A stretch of DNA of 58,854 nucleotides from a virus (Duplodnaviria > Caudoviricetes). The DNA is taken from positions 1 through 58,854 of IMG/VR virus record IMGVR_UViG_3300028025_000002. One strand, written 5' to 3'. A program made the position numbers and the translations under genes. Under the pieces are notes generated by a model. That model was given only the letters and a program-made list of their open reading frames with translations. It did no database searches and was not told where the DNA came from. Shown piece by piece: positions 21,683 through 31,796 of the stretch. Position 1 is the first letter of the stretch; each line of letters opens with the position of its first letter.

Positions 21683-22687
21683 ATGGCAATTCATTTTGCG
21701 AAAGCGCGAAATAAGCGAGTTCCTTTAACACCTCAAGAACAAGAACTTGCTCGCACTCTTTATCAATCAATTCAGCGAGCCACAGATAAAATCTCTATGA
21801 GACAACTTGAATCGTTGCTTCGCAATATGAATCCTGAAACTTTAGAGCGTTTGTTATCAAGCATAACTATTGCTAACCAAAAGAGTATCCAAGAATCTTT
21901 ATTAAATTCGATTGACCTAGGTGGTAAAGATGCCATCAAACAAATTCAAAAGATTGCTCCTAAATTAGCCCTTCCAGCCTTCTCGCCTTCTAAGGTAAAG
22001 ATTGATAATCGACAGGCAATGGCTAACCTTGAATTCACAAAACTTCCTACATGGGCGCAATCTAAACCACCCAAAGTTGAATTCACTATGTCATTTAATA
22101 AAACAAACCCAAACTCTTTAGCCTTTGCTCAACGCCGTGCTGGAGAACTTATTACCTCGATTGACGCTTTAACCCGTAATTCAATTCGTAAAGCAATCAT
22201 TGACGCCTTTAATGAAGGCTTGGATTACAGAGCAACAGCCCGAAGAATTAAAAGTGTCGTAGGGCTACATCCAAGATGGGCTGATGCAGTAACTAATTTT
22301 GAAAAAAGAGAGTTTGCCCGATTAGTCAAAAGCGGAATGAAAGAAGAGACTGCTCGCGCTCGCGCAATAGAACGCTCTACCCGCTACTCAGATTCTCTCA
22401 AGAGCAAAAGAGCAACAATGATTGCTCGAACAGAGATTCAGATTGCTCAAAATGAGGGGCGCTACGAAGGTTGGAAGCAAGCATCAGAACAGGGTTATGT
22501 AGATGTTGAATCACAGAAGATGTGGATTATTGCTCAAGATGAACGCACTTGCGAAATTTGTTCTGAATTAGATGGCGAAATAGTTCCTTGGAACGAAACA
22601 TTTTCTAGCGGACATGAAACTCCAGGCAGAGTTCATCCTAATTGTCGTTGCACCATGGTAATCATTCCACCTGAGAGACGCTCATGA
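21683..22687 (+). CDS. MuF-like minor head protein
   Basis: RA.MIARTE, K.W....D.RTC.IC..LDG, HPNCRC. Confidence 0.9.
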   Translation: MAIHFAKARNKRVPLTPQEQELARTLYQSIQRATDKISMRQLESLLRNMNPETLERLLSSITIANQKSIQESLLNSIDLGGKDAIKQIQKIAPKLALPAFSPSKVKIDNRQAMANLEFTKLPTWAQSKPPKVEFTMSFNKTNPNSLAFAQRRAGELITSIDALTRNSIRKAIIDAFNEGLDYRATARRIKSVVGLHPRWADAVTNFEKREFARLVKSGMKEETARARAIERSTRYSDSLKSKRATMIARTEIQIAQNEGRYEGWKQASEQGYVDVESQKMWIIAQDERTCEICSELDGEIVPWNETFSSGHETPGRVHPNCRCTMVIIPPERRS

Positions 22688-23460
22688 GTATTACAATCGC
22701 ATTTCCACTTGGATATAAGCCAGTAATTAAACACGGAGACCACGACCAGTCTAGCCATGGTGCTTGGGCTTCAGGAATCATGAATGACCTTGTTACTTTA
22801 GGTAATTTCAATGAAGAGGAGTTGGGAGAAAGTTCACAAAATCTGTATTTTGAAACATACGGGATTAAAACTGATGGCAGTAAAGAACCCGTAGGAATCT
22901 CCCGTAATCAAATAGAAAGTTTGAACTCCTACACAGGAGAGGGATATACAAAAATAAATGCTTTTTTGCGCGGGCGAGGAGATAGTGGAAGCGACCCATT
23001 ATCAACAACAGAAGGCAAAATTTCTGATTTAGATAAACTTATAGAAGATTCACCCGATATGTTCGGAGACAAAAATTTATATCGAGTATTTGATAAAAAC
23101 CTAATAGATACTCTAAAAGAAGGAGACATTTTGACAGACAAAGGATTTATGTCTACAACTAGAGTTGATATAACAAGTGATGAGGGTCAAGAAGTATTGC
23201 AAAACTTACAGTTGATTCGCTTAACAGAAGATAGAGCCTCAATTATTTTGCCAAGTGAGTCTAAAAAAGGCAAAGGTCTTGCAGTCGATTATCTTAAAAA
23301 TTCTGTTTCAGATTTGTTCACAAATGTAGCAACAGCAAATAATGAAAAAGAAGTATTATTGCCACGCAATACTTCTCTCAAATTCCAAGGCTATAAAAAA
23401 TTGAATGAGGGAACGGACAATGCCATGGAGATTGCAGTCTTTCAAAGGATGGACAAATGA
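22684..23460 (+). CDS. ADP-ribosyltransferase (VIP2/Alt-like) with HDQ tag
   Basis: YT..GY..IN..LR, LYR, DKGFMSTT, EKEVLLPRNT. Confidence 0.88.
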   Translation: MSITIAFPLGYKPVIKHGDHDQSSHGAWASGIMNDLVTLGNFNEEELGESSQNLYFETYGIKTDGSKEPVGISRNQIESLNSYTGEGYTKINAFLRGRGDSGSDPLSTTEGKISDLDKLIEDSPDMFGDKNLYRVFDKNLIDTLKEGDILTDKGFMSTTRVDITSDEGQEVLQNLQLIRLTEDRASIILPSESKKGKGLAVDYLKNSVSDLFTNVATANNEKEVLLPRNTSLKFQGYKKLNEGTDNAMEIAVFQRMDK

Positions 23461-24179
23461 GTAGATTCATAACCATGCTTGGGGATGTTGAGATAACCCG
23501 AGCCAAAGATGTTAAAAAACATGGAGACCACGACCAAAGTTCTCACGGTGCTTGGGCTACGGGAGTTGGCTATAAAGATTCAGATGAACACCCCAAATAC
23601 GATTCTGCTGAAAATGGCGTAAATGTTGAATACTATACAAGTGTCGGGTCTTGGGAAATTAACGGTCTGCTTAGAACTGGAAAAGTACCTGAAGATTCAA
23701 ATTCTAATAAAGGAGAAATTCGTGACTATATTAAATCTCTTGATACCGAAATAAGTAAAACTTCAACACCTAGAGATTTAGTTTTATTTAGAGGAACTTC
23801 GGGAACTGGAACTGAAGTTTTTGAAAAACTTAAAGTAGGCGATATTTATATTGACAAAGGTTTTGTTTCAACTACTTTAGATATAGCCGTTGTACCTGAA
23901 TTTATGTCTACGGCTACGGGCGGGAGATACGATTCAAGACCAATAGAAAAAGGATATGTTTTAGAAATAAGCGTTCCTAAAGGCAGTAAAGCCTTATCAG
24001 TCAATAGTTATTTTAGAAATGTAAGTGGCAGATATGGACCAAGCGACGATATTCGTAAAGAGGATGAACATATTTTGCCACGCAACACAAAATTTAGAGT
24101 GGATAGCATAAGTAGTATTGATGTTCGAGGTCTAAAAGATAAACTTATTAAAGTATCGGTGGTAGATGATGGCAAGTAA
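23457..24179 (+). CDS. Second ADP-ribosyltransferase (VIP2/Alt-like) with HDQ tag
   Basis: IN.LLR, LFRG, DKGFVSTT, EDEHILPRNT.F.V. Confidence 0.88.
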   Translation: MSRFITMLGDVEITRAKDVKKHGDHDQSSHGAWATGVGYKDSDEHPKYDSAENGVNVEYYTSVGSWEINGLLRTGKVPEDSNSNKGEIRDYIKSLDTEISKTSTPRDLVLFRGTSGTGTEVFEKLKVGDIYIDKGFVSTTLDIAVVPEFMSTATGGRYDSRPIEKGYVLEISVPKGSKALSVNSYFRNVSGRYGPSDDIRKEDEHILPRNTKFRVDSISSIDVRGLKDKLIKVSVVDDGK

Positions 24180-26040
24180 ATATGTTTATGCCGAATCAGA
24201 CGATATTGAAATCCTTATATCTAAGCACGGCGACCATGACCAGTCTAGTCATGGCTCATGGGCGAAGGGAGTCCAAGTAGCCCCTGAGATTGTCCGCTCA
24301 ACCCTTGAGAGGGTCAAGGAGAATGGCGGTCTCTCAGTAAGCCTAAAGGACGGTTCTGAGCCTACTAAGGGGTTCATGGTTGCCAAAGGTAAGAAGTTCG
24401 CGGCGATAGTCAAGGCTGACGAATTTTTTGATGAGGCTAAGGGCGCTGAGATTCTTTCCTCCTATATGAAGCAACATAAATCAGAGTTCAATAATTCGAA
24501 TAACTACCTAGGTTTATGGCACAATACTGATGATGGACAGGTTTACCTTGATGTTTCAGAAAACATTGAGGACGAGGGGGAGGCTATCTCTCGGGGTCGT
24601 GAACGCGACCAAATCTCAATTTGGGATGTAGCAAACTTCAAAGAGATAGAAACAGGAGGAACAGGTGGCATCGAAAAAACTCGAAGCGGTACAACTGCCC
24701 GATATGTCGAACATGACAGACGAGCAGATAGACGCTTACGCCAAAGAGATTTGGGCGAAGTTAGCAAAAGGCAAGAACGAGTCAAAGTAATTTATTTTGA
24801 TTATGGATTAAAACCCGTATTCAAACACGGGGAACATGACCAGTCCGAACACGGTAACTGGGCTAGAGGTTTTACTGAAGATGAAATTGCTCGCATAGAA
24901 GAAATGCGCGGTGTTGGTCCATCTTTAGAGGACTTAGATAATGTCATGAAAGATATGGAAGTTGAATTTAGTGATGAGCGATTAAAACTTACTGTTGAAA
25001 ATGACAGCGACTTTTATAGAGAAGCAACTCAAGATATTGATGAAAAGGTTGCTGAACGCCTTAAAAACCTACAAGAAGAATTTCCTAACCATGAATATAG
25101 TGAGCAAGAAAAAGCAACCATCTATGAAGATGTACAAAACGAGATGATTGATGAGTATGTAGAAAATTACAGAGATATGCTGACTGAATACGAAACACTT
25201 AATTCAGGCGAAACAGGCGGTACCCAACAAGACCCTGAAGAGTTAGTTCCGTATTTTGACGAGGTTTTTGGAGTTAGCCATACGGGTACTCACCCTGATG
25301 GTCGTGAAATAACTTTGACCGCAAACATCGGTAGCGTGTTTAGAGACGGAAATAGTATTTATGTCCGTGGAGATATTGTCGATGAAAACGGCGATATGGT
25401 CGGAGAACTTAGCCGAAGATTTTTTAATGAAAACGGTATATGGAATGTTGAACACGAAGTCCTAGCAATTCCTGACCCTGATTATCAAGGTACAGGTTTT
25501 GGTAAAGCACTCATTGAGCAATCTGAGGCTTGGTACACAGCAAGAGGTATGGGATATATTCAAGTTGGAACAGCATGGGATGGCGCTCGCCATTGGGCGC
25601 GAGCAGGTTATGACTTTGCGCCTGGGAAGGTTGCTGACAGTCTACAAACGATTGCTAACAATGTTGAATATGTAGATGGATTCGAAAGAGGCACTCCAGC
25701 AAGAGCGGAGTACGATGCTTTGATGAGTAGAGCAACAAATAATTATCAACCTGATTTTACAGATGAAAGTGGTAATCAATACCCCGCTTGGGATTCAGTT
25801 AAAGATATAAAAGAAGATGGTTTTCCCCTTCCTGCTCATTTTGCAAACATTGGTTACACAGAGGGCGCAAGAGATTGGGCTGGCAAGAGTTTGATGTATG
25901 ACTTGAGATTGAAGTATGTAAAGTCATTGACTGCTGAAGGTCAGAAACTATTAGAGGGTCCTATCGACCATGATGGCGATGGATTGATTTATGACGGAAC
26001 AGCGCGTGAGAAGCCAGCACCTACTGGCGGAAAGAACTAA
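24169..26040 (+). CDS. Multidomain protein with two HDQ tags: unknown domain plus GNAT-like acetyltransferase
   Basis: GNAT motif YQGTGFGKAL...G..HWARAGYDF; C-terminal DHDGDG..YDGT motif. Confidence 0.75.
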   Translation: MASKYVYAESDDIEILISKHGDHDQSSHGSWAKGVQVAPEIVRSTLERVKENGGLSVSLKDGSEPTKGFMVAKGKKFAAIVKADEFFDEAKGAEILSSYMKQHKSEFNNSNNYLGLWHNTDDGQVYLDVSENIEDEGEAISRGRERDQISIWDVANFKEIETGGTGGIEKTRSGTTARYVEHDRRADRRLRQRDLGEVSKRQERVKVIYFDYGLKPVFKHGEHDQSEHGNWARGFTEDEIARIEEMRGVGPSLEDLDNVMKDMEVEFSDERLKLTVENDSDFYREATQDIDEKVAERLKNLQEEFPNHEYSEQEKATIYEDVQNEMIDEYVENYRDMLTEYETLNSGETGGTQQDPEELVPYFDEVFGVSHTGTHPDGREITLTANIGSVFRDGNSIYVRGDIVDENGDMVGELSRRFFNENGIWNVEHEVLAIPDPDYQGTGFGKALIEQSEAWYTARGMGYIQVGTAWDGARHWARAGYDFAPGKVADSLQTIANNVEYVDGFERGTPARAEYDALMSRATNNYQPDFTDESGNQYPAWDSVKDIKEDGFPLPAHFANIGYTEGARDWAGKSLMYDLRLKYVKSLTAEGQKLLEGPIDHDGDGLIYDGTAREKPAPTGGKN

Positions 26041-26059: not shown

Positions 26060-26221
26060 ATGGCTATGAGTAGACGAGAAACCCAAAAGGCTATCCAAGA
26101 GGCTTATTCAAAATGGGCTGAGAAGGTTCAATTTACTTCTTACACAGGCGCCGATGAAGCCGATGAAACAATACTTATGCAAGAAATTCAAACCATACTT
26201 CAAGGAAATAAACCCGAGTAG
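26060..26221 (+). CDS. Small hypothetical protein, probably leaderless (candidate immunity protein)
   Basis: ATG 6 nt after TATAAT; 53 aa; sits between effector genes. Confidence 0.55.
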   Translation: MAMSRRETQKAIQEAYSKWAEKVQFTSYTGADEADETILMQEIQTILQGNKPE

Positions 26222-26246: not shown

Positions 26247-27884
26247 ATGGCGGATATTGCTCCTAAACTGATTCATCTAAGCGCTGAGAAACTACTCGCG
26301 CTTCATGAGAATGTCCATAAATCAGCGTCTCCAACCTCGGCTGAAATTGAGGTTCATCACACCATTCTCAATGAGATGGCTAGACGCAAGATGGAACGCC
26401 CAAAGGATGATTGGGATAAGTACGAGATTCTTATAGATTCAATCGACAATGTAGACCTAACTAGCCTTAACGGATTACCAGCCGAGACCATCCTTGATGT
26501 CATAAAAACAACAGGGGATACAACTGGCAATATCAAAACTTTCTTAACAGTTGATGGCTACCAAATGCGAGTAGAGGCTGTTGAAAAAAGAATTGCTCAA
26601 GAAGATGGTAAATGGATTGTTTACAATGAAGAAGGAACTAGAAGTTTTGGAAGTTATGATTCTAAAGAAGAGGCTGAAGAACGCTTAAAACAAATTGAGT
26701 TTTTCAAAGCCGAGGGAGATTACAAACCACCTAAGTCTGTTAGAGAAGCGGCGCAAAGAGCGATTGAATGGATTGAGGCTGGTCTTGCTGGAGATGGTTT
26801 TACTTCAGTCGGTAGAACTAGAGCAGGTCAGTTAGCCCGTGGAGAAAACATTAGCATTGAAACTTTGAAAAGAATGAAATCATTTTTTTCTCGACACAAA
26901 GTTGATGGACAAGCCCTTGGATTTAATCGTGGCGAAAAAGGATTCCCTAGCGCTGGTCGAGTGTCATGGGATGCTTGGGGTGGAGATGCTGGATTCGCAT
27001 GGGCAGAATCAATGGTGGAGAGATATGAAAATCAAGTCAAAAAACACGGAGACCACGACCAATCTGAACACGGAAGTTGGGCTACTGGAGGTAGCGGTGG
27101 AGAAGATAAAGGTTCTACTGGTCGTCCCTCTATGGCACCCGATAAAAAAGCATCCGCAGAAAGAAGCCCTGACGCAGTTAAACAAGCACAGAGAATTAGA
27201 AGAGATGCTGAAGCAGTTGAGCCAGTAGTTACATCTTTGATGGAGGGAATCGCTAAATCTATTGATGCTGATTTTGCCGAATTAGATGGCAAGAGTTCTC
27301 TTGTAAATAGATTAAAGTCCACAGATTCTCTCGCACGAAAAATTGACCAAGATGCAGAAAAGGATTACGGCGGAGATAGAGAAAAAGCGGCAAACGCACT
27401 TTCTGATGCTGTTCGCTACACACTCAATGTTGATGATAATAACTACACAGACGGCGTAGAAAAAGCGATTAAGTCTGTTGAAGAAACTGGTTGGAAAGTT
27501 GAATCAGTTAAAAACTTTTGGCAAGCAGGTGACCCTTATGACGGTACCAACATTAAAATTAGCAAAGACGGGGTAAAGGTTGAATTACAACTTCACACCC
27601 CAACATCTCATAAAGTTAAAGAAGTAGATTTACATGATGACTATGAGGTTTATCGAGTTTCCAAAGACAACACAGAGCGCAAAGCCCTGTGGGATTCGAT
27701 GGTCAATAAGGCTAAGGCAATCCCTAGACCAGCGAACATGGGCAAACTATTGACCCTTGGAACGCTAGTTACACAGACTTTTGAGACCGCACAGCAAGCA
27801 GGTTTGGTAAAATCAACGGGGGTTGATATAATGTGGACAATAACGAGAGGAGGTATAGCCGTATGCGGTATTTCGCAAAACTAG
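26247..27884 (+). CDS. Multidomain head-associated protein ending in an HDQ-tagged RelA/SpoT-like synthetase domain
   Basis: RLKS..SL.RK, DAVRYT, KNFW...YDG.N, VELQLHT; upstream small domains (RMKSFFSRH...WGGD). Confidence 0.82.
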   Translation: MADIAPKLIHLSAEKLLALHENVHKSASPTSAEIEVHHTILNEMARRKMERPKDDWDKYEILIDSIDNVDLTSLNGLPAETILDVIKTTGDTTGNIKTFLTVDGYQMRVEAVEKRIAQEDGKWIVYNEEGTRSFGSYDSKEEAEERLKQIEFFKAEGDYKPPKSVREAAQRAIEWIEAGLAGDGFTSVGRTRAGQLARGENISIETLKRMKSFFSRHKVDGQALGFNRGEKGFPSAGRVSWDAWGGDAGFAWAESMVERYENQVKKHGDHDQSEHGSWATGGSGGEDKGSTGRPSMAPDKKASAERSPDAVKQAQRIRRDAEAVEPVVTSLMEGIAKSIDADFAELDGKSSLVNRLKSTDSLARKIDQDAEKDYGGDREKAANALSDAVRYTLNVDDNNYTDGVEKAIKSVEETGWKVESVKNFWQAGDPYDGTNIKISKDGVKVELQLHTPTSHKVKEVDLHDDYEVYRVSKDNTERKALWDSMVNKAKAIPRPANMGKLLTLGTLVTQTFETAQQAGLVKSTGVDIMWTITRGGIAVCGISQN

Positions 27885-28594
27885 GCGCAAACAACGAAGC
27901 GATAAACATTTATCGTTTTGAGGTGGGCGAGACGACCATTACTGAGGACAGATGGGACATTCGAAGCAAGGCTTGGGTGGATAACCCTGATGCTGATGTA
28001 GTTCGCTATCTAACCCAAGGCGAAGGTGAATTCCAAGAAGTTACTGAGGATGTAGCCCGTCAAATTTTTCCTGATGTATTTAGTGAAAATGCTACAAAGG
28101 CTTTAGGTAAGTTTGACTTGCAAAAAGCAGAAGGTGAAAAGCGATACACGCTTGGAGCAATGTATATCCCTGATATGGAAGATGCTCACGGTGAGTGGAC
28201 AGATTCCGAAGAATTACAAAGAGCGGTTTGGGATTATGTAAGAAGTAATGACCGTCGTATCCGTTTACAACATAACCGTGATGTAGTTGCTGGAGAATGG
28301 GTTGAAGTTATGGCTTTCCCTTATTCATTAACAGTTCCAATCAAAACACCTAATGGTCAAGACTTAGAACATACATACCCACCCAACACAGTTTTCCTTG
28401 GAGTCATTTGGGAACCGTGGGCGTGGGAAATGGTCACCGAAGGAAAAATTCGTGGCTATTCAATCGGCGGAAAAGCAGAGCGTTTATTCGTTGATATAGA
28501 CTTAGAAAAGAATGACCCAACTGTGTCGGATGTACACATTGATACAATTATGTCCCCTTCAAAGAAAAAGCCAAAGAAAGAAGAGACTGTATGA
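27863..28594 (+). CDS. XkdF-like prohead protease with an extra N-terminal domain
   Basis: Y.PD.EDAHGE, LQH, W..V..G.I.GYSIGG.A; GAGGAGG RBS and internal TGaTATAAT promoter at about 27824-27832. Confidence 0.85.
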   Translation: MRYFAKLGANNEAINIYRFEVGETTITEDRWDIRSKAWVDNPDADVVRYLTQGEGEFQEVTEDVARQIFPDVFSENATKALGKFDLQKAEGEKRYTLGAMYIPDMEDAHGEWTDSEELQRAVWDYVRSNDRRIRLQHNRDVVAGEWVEVMAFPYSLTVPIKTPNGQDLEHTYPPNTVFLGVIWEPWAWEMVTEGKIRGYSIGGKAERLFVDIDLEKNDPTVSDVHIDTIMSPSKKKPKKEETV

Positions 28595-29025
28595 AAAAAG
28601 ACCTTAGAATGTTAGACGAATTACGCAAAGGACCTTTGGCTGGTATGGACGAGGACGAGTTCAAAATGATTGAAGCGGATGTCCGTAAGTTTGGCTTTAA
28701 GGGGCTTAGTGGCTACGCAAAATCTATGGTCATGGAGGCTATGCGCCGTTTAGGAACCACTATCAATAAAGCGGTTGAAGGAAAGTTAATTGAATTTAAT
28801 AAAAGCATTTCTGTTGGAGATAAAGTAAGTTGGAATTCTTCAGGAGGAAGTGCCGAAGGAAAAGTATTACGAATTGAACGCTCAGGAAAAATCAATGTTC
28901 CTGATTCATCATTCGAAATTGAAGGCACAGAAGATGACCCTGCGGCGTTAATTGTCCTTTATCGTGATGGTAAACCAACTGATACTAAAGTTGGGCATAA
29001 AGTTTCAACACTAAAAAAAAAGTAG
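28591..29025 (+). CDS. Protein with Hva1/DUF2945-like Tudor domain; ends in a slippery A-run
   Basis: VGDKVSWNSSGG...G.V...DDPA...VGHK.STL. Confidence 0.7.
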   Translation: MKKDLRMLDELRKGPLAGMDEDEFKMIEADVRKFGFKGLSGYAKSMVMEAMRRLGTTINKAVEGKLIEFNKSISVGDKVSWNSSGGSAEGKVLRIERSGKINVPDSSFEIEGTEDDPAALIVLYRDGKPTDTKVGHKVSTLKKK

Positions 29026-29234
29026 TTCTTGAGAAGCACGGGGACCATGACCAATCAAGTCATGGCGACTGGCGCAATGCCGATGATTCTGAAGGTGAAG
29101 ATTCATCAGAACCAAAAAACCCAAAACAAAATTTTGTTCCATACGATGATGACTCCGAAGGTGAGTTTGCAGATTTAGATTACGATGACCCAAAATGGAT
29201 GGACACAATGGATTACCCAAGAAAGAAGAAGTAA
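29013..29234 (+). CDS. -1 frame extension of 28591 carrying the sixth HDQ tag and an acidic tail
   Basis: KVVLEKHGDHDQSSHGDWRN...YPRKKK*; no start codon before the tag; its TAA overlaps the next ATG. Confidence 0.7.
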   Translation, partial: KKKVVLEKHGDHDQSSHGDWRNADDSEGEDSSEPKNPKQNFVPYDDDSEGEFADLDYDDPKWMDTMDYPRKKK

Positions 29235-29603: not shown

Positions 29604-30407
29604 ATGTCAAAACCCCGTACCCGTAAAATGGTGAATTTAGCCATCGAGGAAACGAGTGGAGTAGACCATCCAGCGCACTTACATGAAGGTTGGCTTGTTA
29701 TGAAGTCAGCATCCGAATCTGAAGTTCAGAGGGTTCTCGACAAATCGCTGACCGAGGAGGACTCCAATATGGAGGAAACAACTACCACGGCACCTGAAGA
29801 GCAGGTTGAAAAAACCGTTGAGGAAGAACTAGCGATGGCGCAAGCCCGTATCGCTGAACTCGAAGCCAAACTCGCCGACAAGGAAGAAAAGCCTGAATTG
29901 GAAGTTGAAATGGCGATGGGTCAAGACTCAAAGGAACCAAAGAAGGAAGAAGAGGACTACATGAAGTCCGCTCCTGCTCCAGTTGTCAAAATGATTGAGG
30001 ACTTGAGAAAGCAAGCAGAATCAGCAACCGCTGAACTTCGCAAAGAACGCGAAGCCCGTGCTGACGCTCAAGCCGTTGAAAAAGCAAAGGGTTGGGCTAA
30101 TCTCAATCTCAATGCTGAAAAAGTTGGACCAGCGCTTCGTCGCTTGTCCGAAACAGATTCAGAACTAGCAAAGAGCGTAGAAGAAATTCTTTCTTCAGTT
30201 AATGCTCAGGCTGAATCAGCATCTATTTTTGCAGAAATCGGCAAATCTGCGGACTTCAAATCAGGCAATGCTTATGAGCGTATGACTACGCTTGCTAAGT
30301 CTGCCGTTGATGAGGGTGTAGCAAAGTCTTTCGCTCAGGCGATGGCTGATGTTGCGTCAAAAAACCCTGACCTTTACAGCCAATACCTATCCGAGAAAGG
30401 TGCCTAA
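29604..30407 (+). CDS. Capsid scaffolding protein (putative)
   Basis: EETSGVDHPAH N-terminus, acidic coiled coil, position before decoration and capsid genes. Confidence 0.75.
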   Translation: MSKPRTRKMVNLAIEETSGVDHPAHLHEGWLVMKSASESEVQRVLDKSLTEEDSNMEETTTTAPEEQVEKTVEEELAMAQARIAELEAKLADKEEKPELEVEMAMGQDSKEPKKEEEDYMKSAPAPVVKMIEDLRKQAESATAELRKEREARADAQAVEKAKGWANLNLNAEKVGPALRRLSETDSELAKSVEEILSSVNAQAESASIFAEIGKSADFKSGNAYERMTTLAKSAVDEGVAKSFAQAMADVASKNPDLYSQYLSEKGA

Positions 30408-30818: not shown

Positions 30819-31796
30819 ATGCCACAGCCAAATATCAATTCCGTCCATGTGGACGCAATTCTTACAAATATCTCGGTTGCTTACTTACAGAACCAAGATA
30901 ACTTTATCGCAGACAAGGTATTCCCAGTAATCCCTGTCGATAAGAAGAGCGATAAATACTTTACTTACACCAAGAACGATTGGTTCCGCGATGAGGCTCA
31001 ACGCCGTGCGCCTGGAACTGAATCTGCTGGTGGCGGTTACAATCTTTCAACTGGAACTTACTCAGCAGATGTTTGGGCGTTCCACAAAGATGTAGATGAC
31101 CAAACAGTTGCTAACGCAGACGCTCCTCTAAACCCTCTTCGTGAGGCAACAGAGTTCGTTACTCGCCGTTTGATGCTTCGTCGTGAACTACAATGGGTTT
31201 CAGATTTCTTTGGAACTGGTGTATGGGCTGACGATGTAACTGGCGTTGCTGGCGCACCATCTTCAGGACAGACAAAGCAATGGTCTGACTACACATCATC
31301 CGACCCAATCTCAGACATTGAGGCTGGAAAGGCTGAAATCTTGGGCAACACAGGAATGGAAGCAAACACTTTGGTTCTTGGATACGATGTATTCAAGTCA
31401 CTAAAGAATCACCCTGACCTTGTAGACCGCATCAAGTACACATCTTCACAGACAATCACAACCGATATGTTGGCCGCAATGTTCGACATTCCTCGCGTTA
31501 TGGTTGCAAAGGCAGTTAAGGCAACAAACGCTGAAGGTGCCGCAGAGGCATACGGATTCGCTCATGGTAAGAAGGCTCTTCTTTGCCATGTTGCTCCACA
31601 GCCTGGACTACTAACCCCTTCTGCTGGATACACATTCGCATGGACTGGTGTATCAGGCGGACTTGGCGCAACTATCGGAACTTCACAGTTCCGTATGGAA
31701 TCCATCAAGTCAGACCGAGTTGAAGCAGAAATGGCTTTTGATAACAAAGTTATTTCTTCTGACCTTGGCTACTTCTGGAACACAATCGTCGCTTAA
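30819..31796 (+). CDS. Major capsid protein
   Basis: HVD..LTNISVAY...FIADKVFP.IPV.K.SDKY; position; terminator follows. Confidence 0.9.
   Translation: MPQPNINSVHVDAILTNISVAYLQNQDNFIADKVFPVIPVDKKSDKYFTYTKNDWFRDEAQRRAPGTESAGGGYNLSTGTYSADVWAFHKDVDDQTVANADAPLNPLREATEFVTRRLMLRRELQWVSDFFGTGVWADDVTGVAGAPSSGQTKQWSDYTSSDPISDIEAGKAEILGNTGMEANTLVLGYDVFKSLKNHPDLVDRIKYTSSQTITTDMLAAMFDIPRVMVAKAVKATNAEGAAEAYGFAHGKKALLCHVAPQPGLLTPSAGYTFAWTGVSGGLGATIGTSQFRMESIKSDRVEAEMAFDNKVISSDLGYFWNTIVA

Follow-up and report, generated by a model that had tools for sequence, protein, structure and literature searches.

The locus and its synthetase domain

We analysed a window of 58,854 nucleotides, the virus record IMGVR_UViG_3300028025_000002 of IMG/VR, which is the complete genome of a freshwater phage (Caudoviricetes) with direct terminal repeats. 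The subject of this report is a pair of overlapping genes in its head module (Table 1). Open reading frame 1 (ORF1) encodes an N-terminal module, a short tag and a C-terminal synthetase domain with an RSH (RelA/SpoT homolog) fold that resembles the Apk toxins. ORF2 encodes an XkdF-type prohead protease, which opens with a small domain, called MRYF here after its first residues, followed by a linker and the protease core. It is located between the MuF and effector genes on one side and the scaffold-like and capsid genes on the other. We consider it likely that ORF1 and ORF2 represent an ancestral head protease split by a cassette, consisting of an Apk-type toxin and the MRYF immunity domain, and that MRYF keeps the toxin inactive.

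An earlier note on this DNA, made from the letters alone, had reported a tagged synthetase-like domain with RelA/SpoT motifs and an ELQxHT variant. The four synthetase motifs read RLKSTDSLARK, SDAVRYT, DPYDGTN and ELQLHT. Motif-spotting alone would be weak, since the domain scores below the gathering threshold of the Pfam family RelA_SpoT (PF04607; E 0.056, 14.2 bits vs 27) and no Pfam family is found at E<=0.01. Among PHROGs families, phrog_2859 spans ORF1 residues 1-282 and phrog_7625, a MuF-toxin C-terminus, spans residues 307-497. A phmmer search against the PDB matched the domain to SaEAS (8vx3) with E 2.3e-13, and a 32-sequence profile did so with E 3.8e-19. The AlphaFold2 (AF2) model of the domain, with a predicted local distance difference test (pLDDT) of 84, retrieved with Foldseek first 8vx3 (E 1e-10), then Tas1 (6ox6_A, E 6.6e-6), followed by Rel, RelP, RelQ, SpoT and CapRel. 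The likeness to 8vx3, the Tas1 fold and the ELQLHT motif thus confirmed what the note had reported.

The closest sequence relatives were found among phages: tblastn with the synthetase domain detected Apk2-type MuF C-termini in 127 phage records, with E values down to 3e-25. In phages of Streptococcus, Pasteurella and Mannheimia, with S. pneumoniae, P. multocida and M. haemolytica among the hosts, the identity to the MuF "head morphogenesis" genes was 31-37%. Residues R46, K48, D78, E137, Q139, H141 and T142 of the domain are invariant in 32/32 aligned relatives, and the Apk signature RYT / GxN / xH, as defined in passages of PMC12226406, is present as RYT, GTN and ELQLHT. In the SaEAS crystal structure 8vx3, the inactivating D121A substitution falls at the aligned catalytic Asp. 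The C-terminus of ORF1 is therefore confirmed as an RSH-fold synthetase of the Apk/(p)ppApp-toxin branch, with a likeness far beyond chance. The link to Tas1/Apk-type toxins drawn in the earlier note held; here the toxin is not fused to MuF.

Apk2 toxins from the same organisms are described in passages of PMC12226406 as toxic, ATP-specific and producing (p)ppApp. The ORF1 enzyme looks active and most likely makes (p)ppApp and drains ATP. SaEAS makes both alarmones (PMC12691689), and the product may thus be (p)ppApp, (p)ppGpp or both. The latter property of SaEAS would also suit a regulated host-takeover enzyme, acting by an alarmone pulse or by 3'-pyrophosphorylation of tRNA in the manner of CapRel/PhRel, with MRYF as its regulatory partner; CapRel does figure among the fold matches, and passages of Iyer et al. 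2017 (PMC5512222) propose that the RelA/SpoT domains of polyvalent phage proteins act in signalling. We find this explanation extremely improbable. Those toxic, ATP-specific Apk2 proteins are the closest relatives in sequence, CapRel comes far down the Foldseek ranking (E 2.8e-3, template modelling (TM) score 0.26-0.35), and the parallel cassette found in related phages, described below, carries a zeta toxin.

The start of ORF2 is the ATG at 27863, and not the GTG at 27833; the sequence MRYF opens the protein in all relatives of the same type (type A). The first 22 nt of ORF2 lie within the synthetase ORF. The start codon is preceded by a Shine-Dalgarno sequence that is conserved in type-A loci, and further upstream by a promoter-like site, the -35/-10 layout of which is kept in 16/16 type-A loci inspected, including divergent ones in which the overlapping protein sequence is altered. 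A separate ribosome-binding site, and probably a separate promoter, serve ORF2. The earlier note had placed both in the 3' end of the synthetase gene; the ribosome-binding site and the promoter-like site stand. The spacer of the promoter-like site contains a palindrome, ATCAAC-GGGG-GTTGAT (27812-27827, + strand). Divergent type-A loci retain it as nucleotides, the TTG, AAA, TCA and GTT codons being fixed, and no compensatory changes were observed; it could serve as an operator or form a hairpin.

The note had also described a domain of about 75 amino acids (aa) ahead of the XkdF core, and the boundaries found agree well with this. Residues 1-74 of ORF2 fold confidently (AF2 pLDDT 85-90) into a small alpha/beta domain with the order strands, helix, strand, helix, and the match to the XkdF family (Pfam PF14550, Peptidase_S78_2; E 5e-11, 43.1 bits vs a cut-off of 24) starts at residue 86. 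The AF2 model of the whole protease was built on a 15-row alignment, from which the core was poorly modelled, and a Foldseek search with this model was therefore uninformative.

Domain pairing and protease architecture in related phages

ORF2 has 503 homologs of near length. Their N-terminal ~80 residues fall into exactly two types, which are not related to each other: the best 120 near-length homologs comprise 98 with MRYF, 21 with a second type (type B) and 1 truncated protein. The relatives' loci come from two sets, the top 80 of 161 candidates and the top 80 of 151. In all 118 fetched loci with an upstream C-domain, this domain was either Apk-like (106) or zeta-like (12), with none having both and none having neither. 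The zeta toxin upstream of the type-B protease matches Zeta_toxin (PF06414) with E 2.3e-25. The 116 loci that contain both domains reduce to 82 unique pairs, of which 71 are MRYF with Apk, 11 are type B with zeta, and 0 are mixed. The type of immunity domain is thus strictly paired with the type of toxin. The flanks are as similar between the two types as they are within type A (N-module 56-78%, core 77-84%, major capsid protein 88-94%). Since they are equally conserved in both types, the exchanged unit begins at the tag and ends precisely where the protease core starts, for example in L094 compared with the window.

Two rearranged forms are particularly informative. In one locus (L120), type B stands in front of the core, after a zeta toxin, while a tag and an Apk-like domain are attached to the C-terminus of the protease; the next gene encodes a stand-alone 78-aa MRYF homolog (hhalign probability 98.1%, E 6.6e-14, for MRYF; 99.95%, E 4.7e-38, for the Apk domain). 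In protein P0168, Apk, MRYF and core are joined in a single ORF. MRYF is tied to the toxin, not to the protease. We had also considered MRYF as an intrinsic propeptide of the protease, which was ruled out by L120, by the swap with type B and by the existence of stand-alone forms. The earlier note proposed that the upstream Apk-like domain has its antitoxin in the N-domain of the protease, and this gains support from the pairing, from L120, from the zeta parallel and from the complex model presented below. One of the note's refuting conditions and one of its suggested checks had a clear outcome: the N-domain was found on a protease lacking the synthetase in 0/82 unique phage loci, and a stand-alone homolog following a similar toxin is exactly what L120 contains.

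The architecture of longer homologs indicates where the cassette came to lie. The commonest arrangement, seen in 53/120 of them, is an unsplit protein in which the N-terminal module is directly continued by the core. Protein P0146, which is 85-88% identical to the window proteins, is of this kind and lacks tag, toxin and MRYF, as expected of an empty site; no P0146 locus was found in viral contigs, and the empty site therefore rests on the protein record alone. In 18/120 longer homologs a ParB-like domain is inserted in frame behind a tag (N-module, tag, ParB-like, core), with no MRYF-like element, and in 8/120 a zeta domain follows the N-module and core. On account of the unsplit forms, P0146 and the ParB-like inserts, the best reading of ORF1 and ORF2 is that a cassette has split a single ancestral protease gene. 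The inserted unit, the borders of which are shown by these comparisons, is best read as tag, toxin, stop codon, promoter/ribosome-binding site and immunity domain. The fusion of the probable antidote to the protease core would follow from the cassette's place within the prohead protease gene.

Some further observations concern these architectures. Where zeta is fused behind the core, a conserved ORF of 65-71 aa is directly next (L144 5229-5438; L145 5268-5477; L156 3768-3962). We regard this ORF as a candidate antitoxin from a different family; no relation to type B is detectable (hhalign probability 0.9%). In the Arthrobacter phages Laroyevirus and Kovu, the XkdF core carries an N-terminal 2H/LigT phosphoesterase, annotated as RNA ligase (L132 6329-7450; L133 6281-7414), and this gene follows a MuF protein with an uncharacterised C-domain of ~250 aa. 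A third cassette could not be established here, as that C-domain has no PDB relative. A stretch that by eye resembles Dps/ferritin (..YHWNV.G..F...H..F...YE..) occurs in or beside the polyvalent head protein of two loci (L120 2807-5827; L144 5813-6325).

Modelled complex and proposed mechanism

The synthetase domain and MRYF were modelled as a complex, which reached a score of 0.90, compared with 0.43 for the best of three controls. The mark applied was reached by 58/80 solved complexes and by 2/110 mismatched pairs. The runs share at least 71% of contacts, with a partner pLDDT of at least 86. In the model, MRYF sits over the acceptor-nucleotide and catalytic cleft of the synthetase: the toxin contributes catalytic D78, the acceptor motif DPYDGTN (120-126) and Q139, while MRYF contributes mainly residues 41-59. 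A predicted complex of this quality could also suit a docking adaptor, in which MRYF binds the toxin domain mainly to keep the core with its former N-module for entry into the procapsid, and inhibition is a by-product or absent. The N-module is missing from ORF2, the unsplit N-module-core form is the commonest among the longer homologs, and the type-B/zeta loci are split alike. We nevertheless regard a mainly docking role as improbable, because the modelled interface covers the catalytic cleft, stand-alone MRYF proteins exist, and L120 keeps a stand-alone MRYF gene beside a protease to which Apk is already covalently attached; moreover, capsid targeting by the N-module is only putative.

As to kinship, MRYF shares with Tis1 and IapK a size of ~70-76 aa and a position encoded directly 3' of an Apk toxin. 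In 6/6 Apk2 loci that we opened, an ORF of 68-72 aa occupies the IapK position 3' of the toxin, followed by an HD hydrolase. Comparison by hhalign of the MRYF profile with these six ORFs gave a probability of 67.6% (E 5e-5) over 21 columns, a stretch that coincides with the modelled interface. With VIA-align, Tis1 (6ox6_B) ranked 9 of 48,161 chains (Z 3.3, root-mean-square deviation 3.6, 61 aligned of 76 residues). Neither PHROGs nor Pfam contains a family for MRYF or for type B, and the type-B profile matched nothing relevant in the PDB at E<=10. On these weak likenesses we read MRYF as a divergent, putative IapK/Tis1-like immunity domain.

MRYF evolves fastest of the parts compared (mean distance 0.295, vs 0.257 for the toxin and 0.109 for the core), and within type A its partial correlation with the toxin, given core and N-module, is 0.63. 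All distance matrices are strongly correlated (0.83-0.96). This correlation, the fact that just two N-domain types are seen, and the occurrence of MRYF in cellular genomes without the toxin might be explained if the pairing were an artefact of linkage, with MRYF being a variable, non-essential protease leader co-inherited from one or two recombination events. We judge this very improbable, as the adjacency of toxin and MRYF survives three arrangements (the split form, L120 and P0168), both parts are missing together at the empty site, the complex model passes its controls (0.90 vs 0.43), and MRYF occupies the IapK position of the 6/6 Apk2 loci.

MRYF homologs also occur outside phages. They were found in 6/401 Nanopelagicales genomes searched, in which the Apk profile had 0/401 matches. 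Most of these proteins are fused to a C-domain of ~130-190 aa with a WWCxxC motif and lie in variable regions; one gene stands alone and encodes 80 aa. The neighbours are either kinase-helicase/PLD-like genes or methyltransferase/vWA genes. Proteins P0127 and P0130 had no match in viral contigs; the cellular fusion protein P0130 belongs to no PHROGs or Pfam family, and the ESM Atlas returned nothing for its C-domain. These occurrences fit with orphan immunity.

A number of findings weigh against a cassette of toxin and dedicated immunity domain, in addition to the choice of loci as best candidates. The 82 pair counts are not independent, since few insertion events lie behind them, and co-inheritance would be expected from linkage alone, the toxin and the N-domain being adjacent. 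The partial correlation of MRYF with the core (0.53) is nearly equal to that with the toxin. XkdF cores elsewhere bear unrelated N-domains, such as the 2H phosphoesterase of the Arthrobacter phages. In Nanopelagicales MRYF is found in genomes without the Apk profile, and may have another role there because most copies are fused to the uncharacterised C-domain. As regards the complex, the control of MRYF with unrelated chain 1 still scored 0.43, and passing the mark may partly reflect likeness instead of binding, because the Tas1-Tis1 complex has already been solved. The link to Tis1 is weak, its Z of 3.3 being tied with unrelated folds, and the likeness to the IapK-position ORFs spans only 21 columns. 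MRYF gave no tblastn match in phages, and its profile matched nothing relevant in the PDB at E<=10. Finally, an HD_4 hydrolase (PF13328) had no match anywhere in the phage genome, while the control was detected in 10/14 genomes.

The mechanism that we propose would start from a single ancestral head-protease protein, composed of the N-module and the XkdF core, into which the toxin-immunity cassette inserted, so that ORF1 and ORF2 would be its two halves. The Apk-type synthetase would be packed into the capsid and reach the next host by ejection, where it would be toxic through its alarmone product. In the producing cell, MRYF would neutralise the enzyme by covering its acceptor-nucleotide and catalytic cleft. 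Neutralisation would thus be linked to head assembly, as the earlier note had proposed. During head maturation, the protease would cut at the tag and remove the immunity domain. Packaging, ejection, tag cleavage and loss of the immunity domain are steps we infer from known phage biology and from Iyer et al. 2017 (PMC5512222), passages of which note C-terminal assemblin-like peptidases in polyvalent proteins.

We can also envisage a bolder version of this proposal, which we hold to be rather unlikely: the toxin-immunity pair may act as a non-covalent strap that reassembles the split prohead protease, the core entering the procapsid only by gripping the toxin cargo that hangs on its former N-module in ORF1. 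If so, each packaged toxin would come accompanied by an inhibitor and a protease of its own, and the latter would cut at the tags, destroy or release the immunity domain and arm the toxin in the ATP-free capsid. Cassettes of Apk with MRYF and of zeta with type B would then swap between tag and core like the tips of polymorphic toxins, and Nanopelagicales would have captured an orphan MRYF as a defence against the injected toxin.

The new element here is a toxin-immunity cassette that apparently splits a protease gene, with a zeta-toxin sister cassette filling the same slot in relatives. Our literature searches returned nothing on protease-fused immunity, which is not proof that it is unpublished. 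The packaging of phage head-module toxins, their silencing in the producer and their arming are presented as an open question in passages of PMC10083569. This phage lineage would offer a natural design in which the antidote is physically tied to the maturation protease. It also provides natural controls, namely the empty site, an in-frame non-toxic insert, the zeta sister cassette and a rearranged form with a stand-alone antidote, and because these are matched, the question of silencing and arming becomes directly testable. The findings suggest that toxin-immunity cassettes are able to settle in an essential virion gene and split it, and the orphan MRYF of abundant freshwater Actinobacteria is a candidate counter-measure of the host.

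Genome setting and comparison with known systems

Table 1. Features of the head module in the window (positions of the window unless a locus is named)
Feature	Position	Strand	Remarks
MuF	21683-22687	+	PF04233 confined to a separate gene here
Two ADP-ribosyltransferase (ART) proteins	22684-23460, 23457-24179	+	
624-aa protein with GNAT domain	24166-26040	+	
53-aa ORF	26060-26221	+	
ORF1, 545 aa	26247-27884	+	From the ORF list; order of parts: N-terminal module, tag, Apk-like synthetase domain
N-terminal module of ORF1	26247-27032	+	Opens an unsplit XkdF protease in many relatives
Tag KKHGDHDQSEHGSWA	27039-27083	+	Inter-module linker, left border of the swappable cassette
Apk-like RSH synthetase (putative toxin) domain	~27174-27770	+	~200 aa, behind the tag at 27039-27083
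Synthetase motifs	syn1 27309-27341, syn2 27402-27422, syn3 27531-27551, syn4 (ELQLHT) 27582-27599	+	
Promoter-like TTGGTA-17-TATAAT, TG-extended	27804-27832	+	Inside the 3' end of ORF1
Shine-Dalgarno GAGAGGAGG	27845-27853	+	9 nt before the ATG at 27863
ORF2, 243 aa, XkdF-type prohead protease	27863-28594	+	MRYF domain, linker, protease core
MRYF domain, ORF2 residues 1-74	27863-28084	+	Candidate for structural immunity to the Apk-like domain
XkdF protease core and basic tail	28118-28594	+	~80% conserved between type-A and type-B relatives
Hva1/TUDOR-like protein	28591-29025	+	
Scaffold-like protein	29604-30407	+	
Capsid protein	30819-31796	+	
Six copies of the tag motif	22732-22767, 23520-23555, 24226-24261, 24826-24861, 27045-27080, 29037-29072	+	
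Nanopelagicales MRYF genes	L128 4827-5786; L129 5001-5618; L140 1495-1737 (-); L142 1303-1764		

The tag has the consensus KHGDHDQSxHGxW, and the window contains six matches to the motif H..H[DN]Q..HG.W, all of them on the + strand. Five copies stand ahead of effector-type domains, and the sixth lies after the Hva1-like gene. Copies come right behind short leaders at the N-termini of the two ART proteins and the 624-aa protein, and at internal module borders; in relatives, too, tags mark module borders, with the variants KHNQGKHDQKTHGAW, KHPGHPDQKVHAGGK and NPNHDNLGRFA. The tag region is repeated at the DNA level at 22729-22776 and 23511-23565. The tag may be a protease site or a capsid-targeting signal.

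Behind MuF, the region 22684-26040 (+ strand) encodes two ART proteins of Alt/exoenzyme type and the 624-aa GNAT protein, which carries two tags; no obvious immunity ORFs accompany them. These proteins are probably further packaged effectors. At the end of the Hva1-like gene (29013-29025, + strand) a run of nine A is followed by G and TAG. A -1 slip at this run would append a tag and an acidic tail of ~70 aa, encoded in a frame without a start codon (29001-29234, + strand). Among 77 unique relatives, 47 need the slip, at a run of 8 or more A; 24 have the long form in frame and 6 have neither. This pattern looks like programmed frameshifting or transcriptional slippage.

A blastn search of INPHARED phages with the region gave no match, and no tyrosine integrase was found in the phage genome. 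The nearest cultured relatives of the protease core are from Arthrobacter and Microbacterium phages. As these relatives infect Arthrobacter and Microbacterium, and as MRYF homologs occur in metagenome-assembled genomes of freshwater Nanopelagicales, an actinobacterial host is weakly suggested.

The system most similar to the one described here is the Apk2-IapK-Aph1 MuF module of S. pneumoniae, M. haemolytica, P. multocida and B. caccae prophages, as described in parts of PMC12226406 and PMC10083569. The two have in common a homologous toxin domain (31-37%), the location in the head module, an element of ~70 aa directly 3' of the toxin, and a weak profile likeness between MRYF and the IapK-position ORFs. 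They differ in that the phage toxin is carried by the protease N-module behind a tag, with MuF as a separate gene, and in that the immunity domain is fused to the prohead protease. The phage genome moreover shows neither an HD hydrolase nor a tyrosine integrase, although Aph1 is variable within the family. The type VI secretion system (T6SS) pair Tas1-Tis1 (Apk1; 6ox6) provides the second-best entry by fold, and Tis1, with ~76 aa, occludes the active site of its toxin and can be aligned with MRYF over 61 residues, although weakly. Tas1 is delivered by PAAR/T6SS, whereas here the vehicle would be the phage capsid. SaEAS from Streptomyces albidoflavus (8vx3; PMC12691689) is the closest solved relative in both sequence and fold, and the E-x-Q-x-H-T variant is common to both; unlike the phage protein, it is Sec-exported and has no immunity gene.

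Two other comparisons bear on the architecture. The relatives studied here recall the polyvalent phage proteins with a C-terminal assemblin-like (prohead) peptidase treated in passages of Iyer et al. 2017 (PMC5512222): they combine an N-module, one or more tags, ParB-like or toxin domains and a protease core in a single polypeptide. The window itself has two ORFs split by the toxin-immunity cassette, and those passages do not mention an embedded immunity domain. The sister cassette of the relatives recalls zeta-epsilon, in that a Zeta_toxin is followed by an N-domain of ~82 aa on the protease. It differs in that the type-B domain has no detectable likeness to solved proteins, and the zeta cassette belongs to the relatives, the same slot in the window being taken by the Apk-like domain and MRYF.

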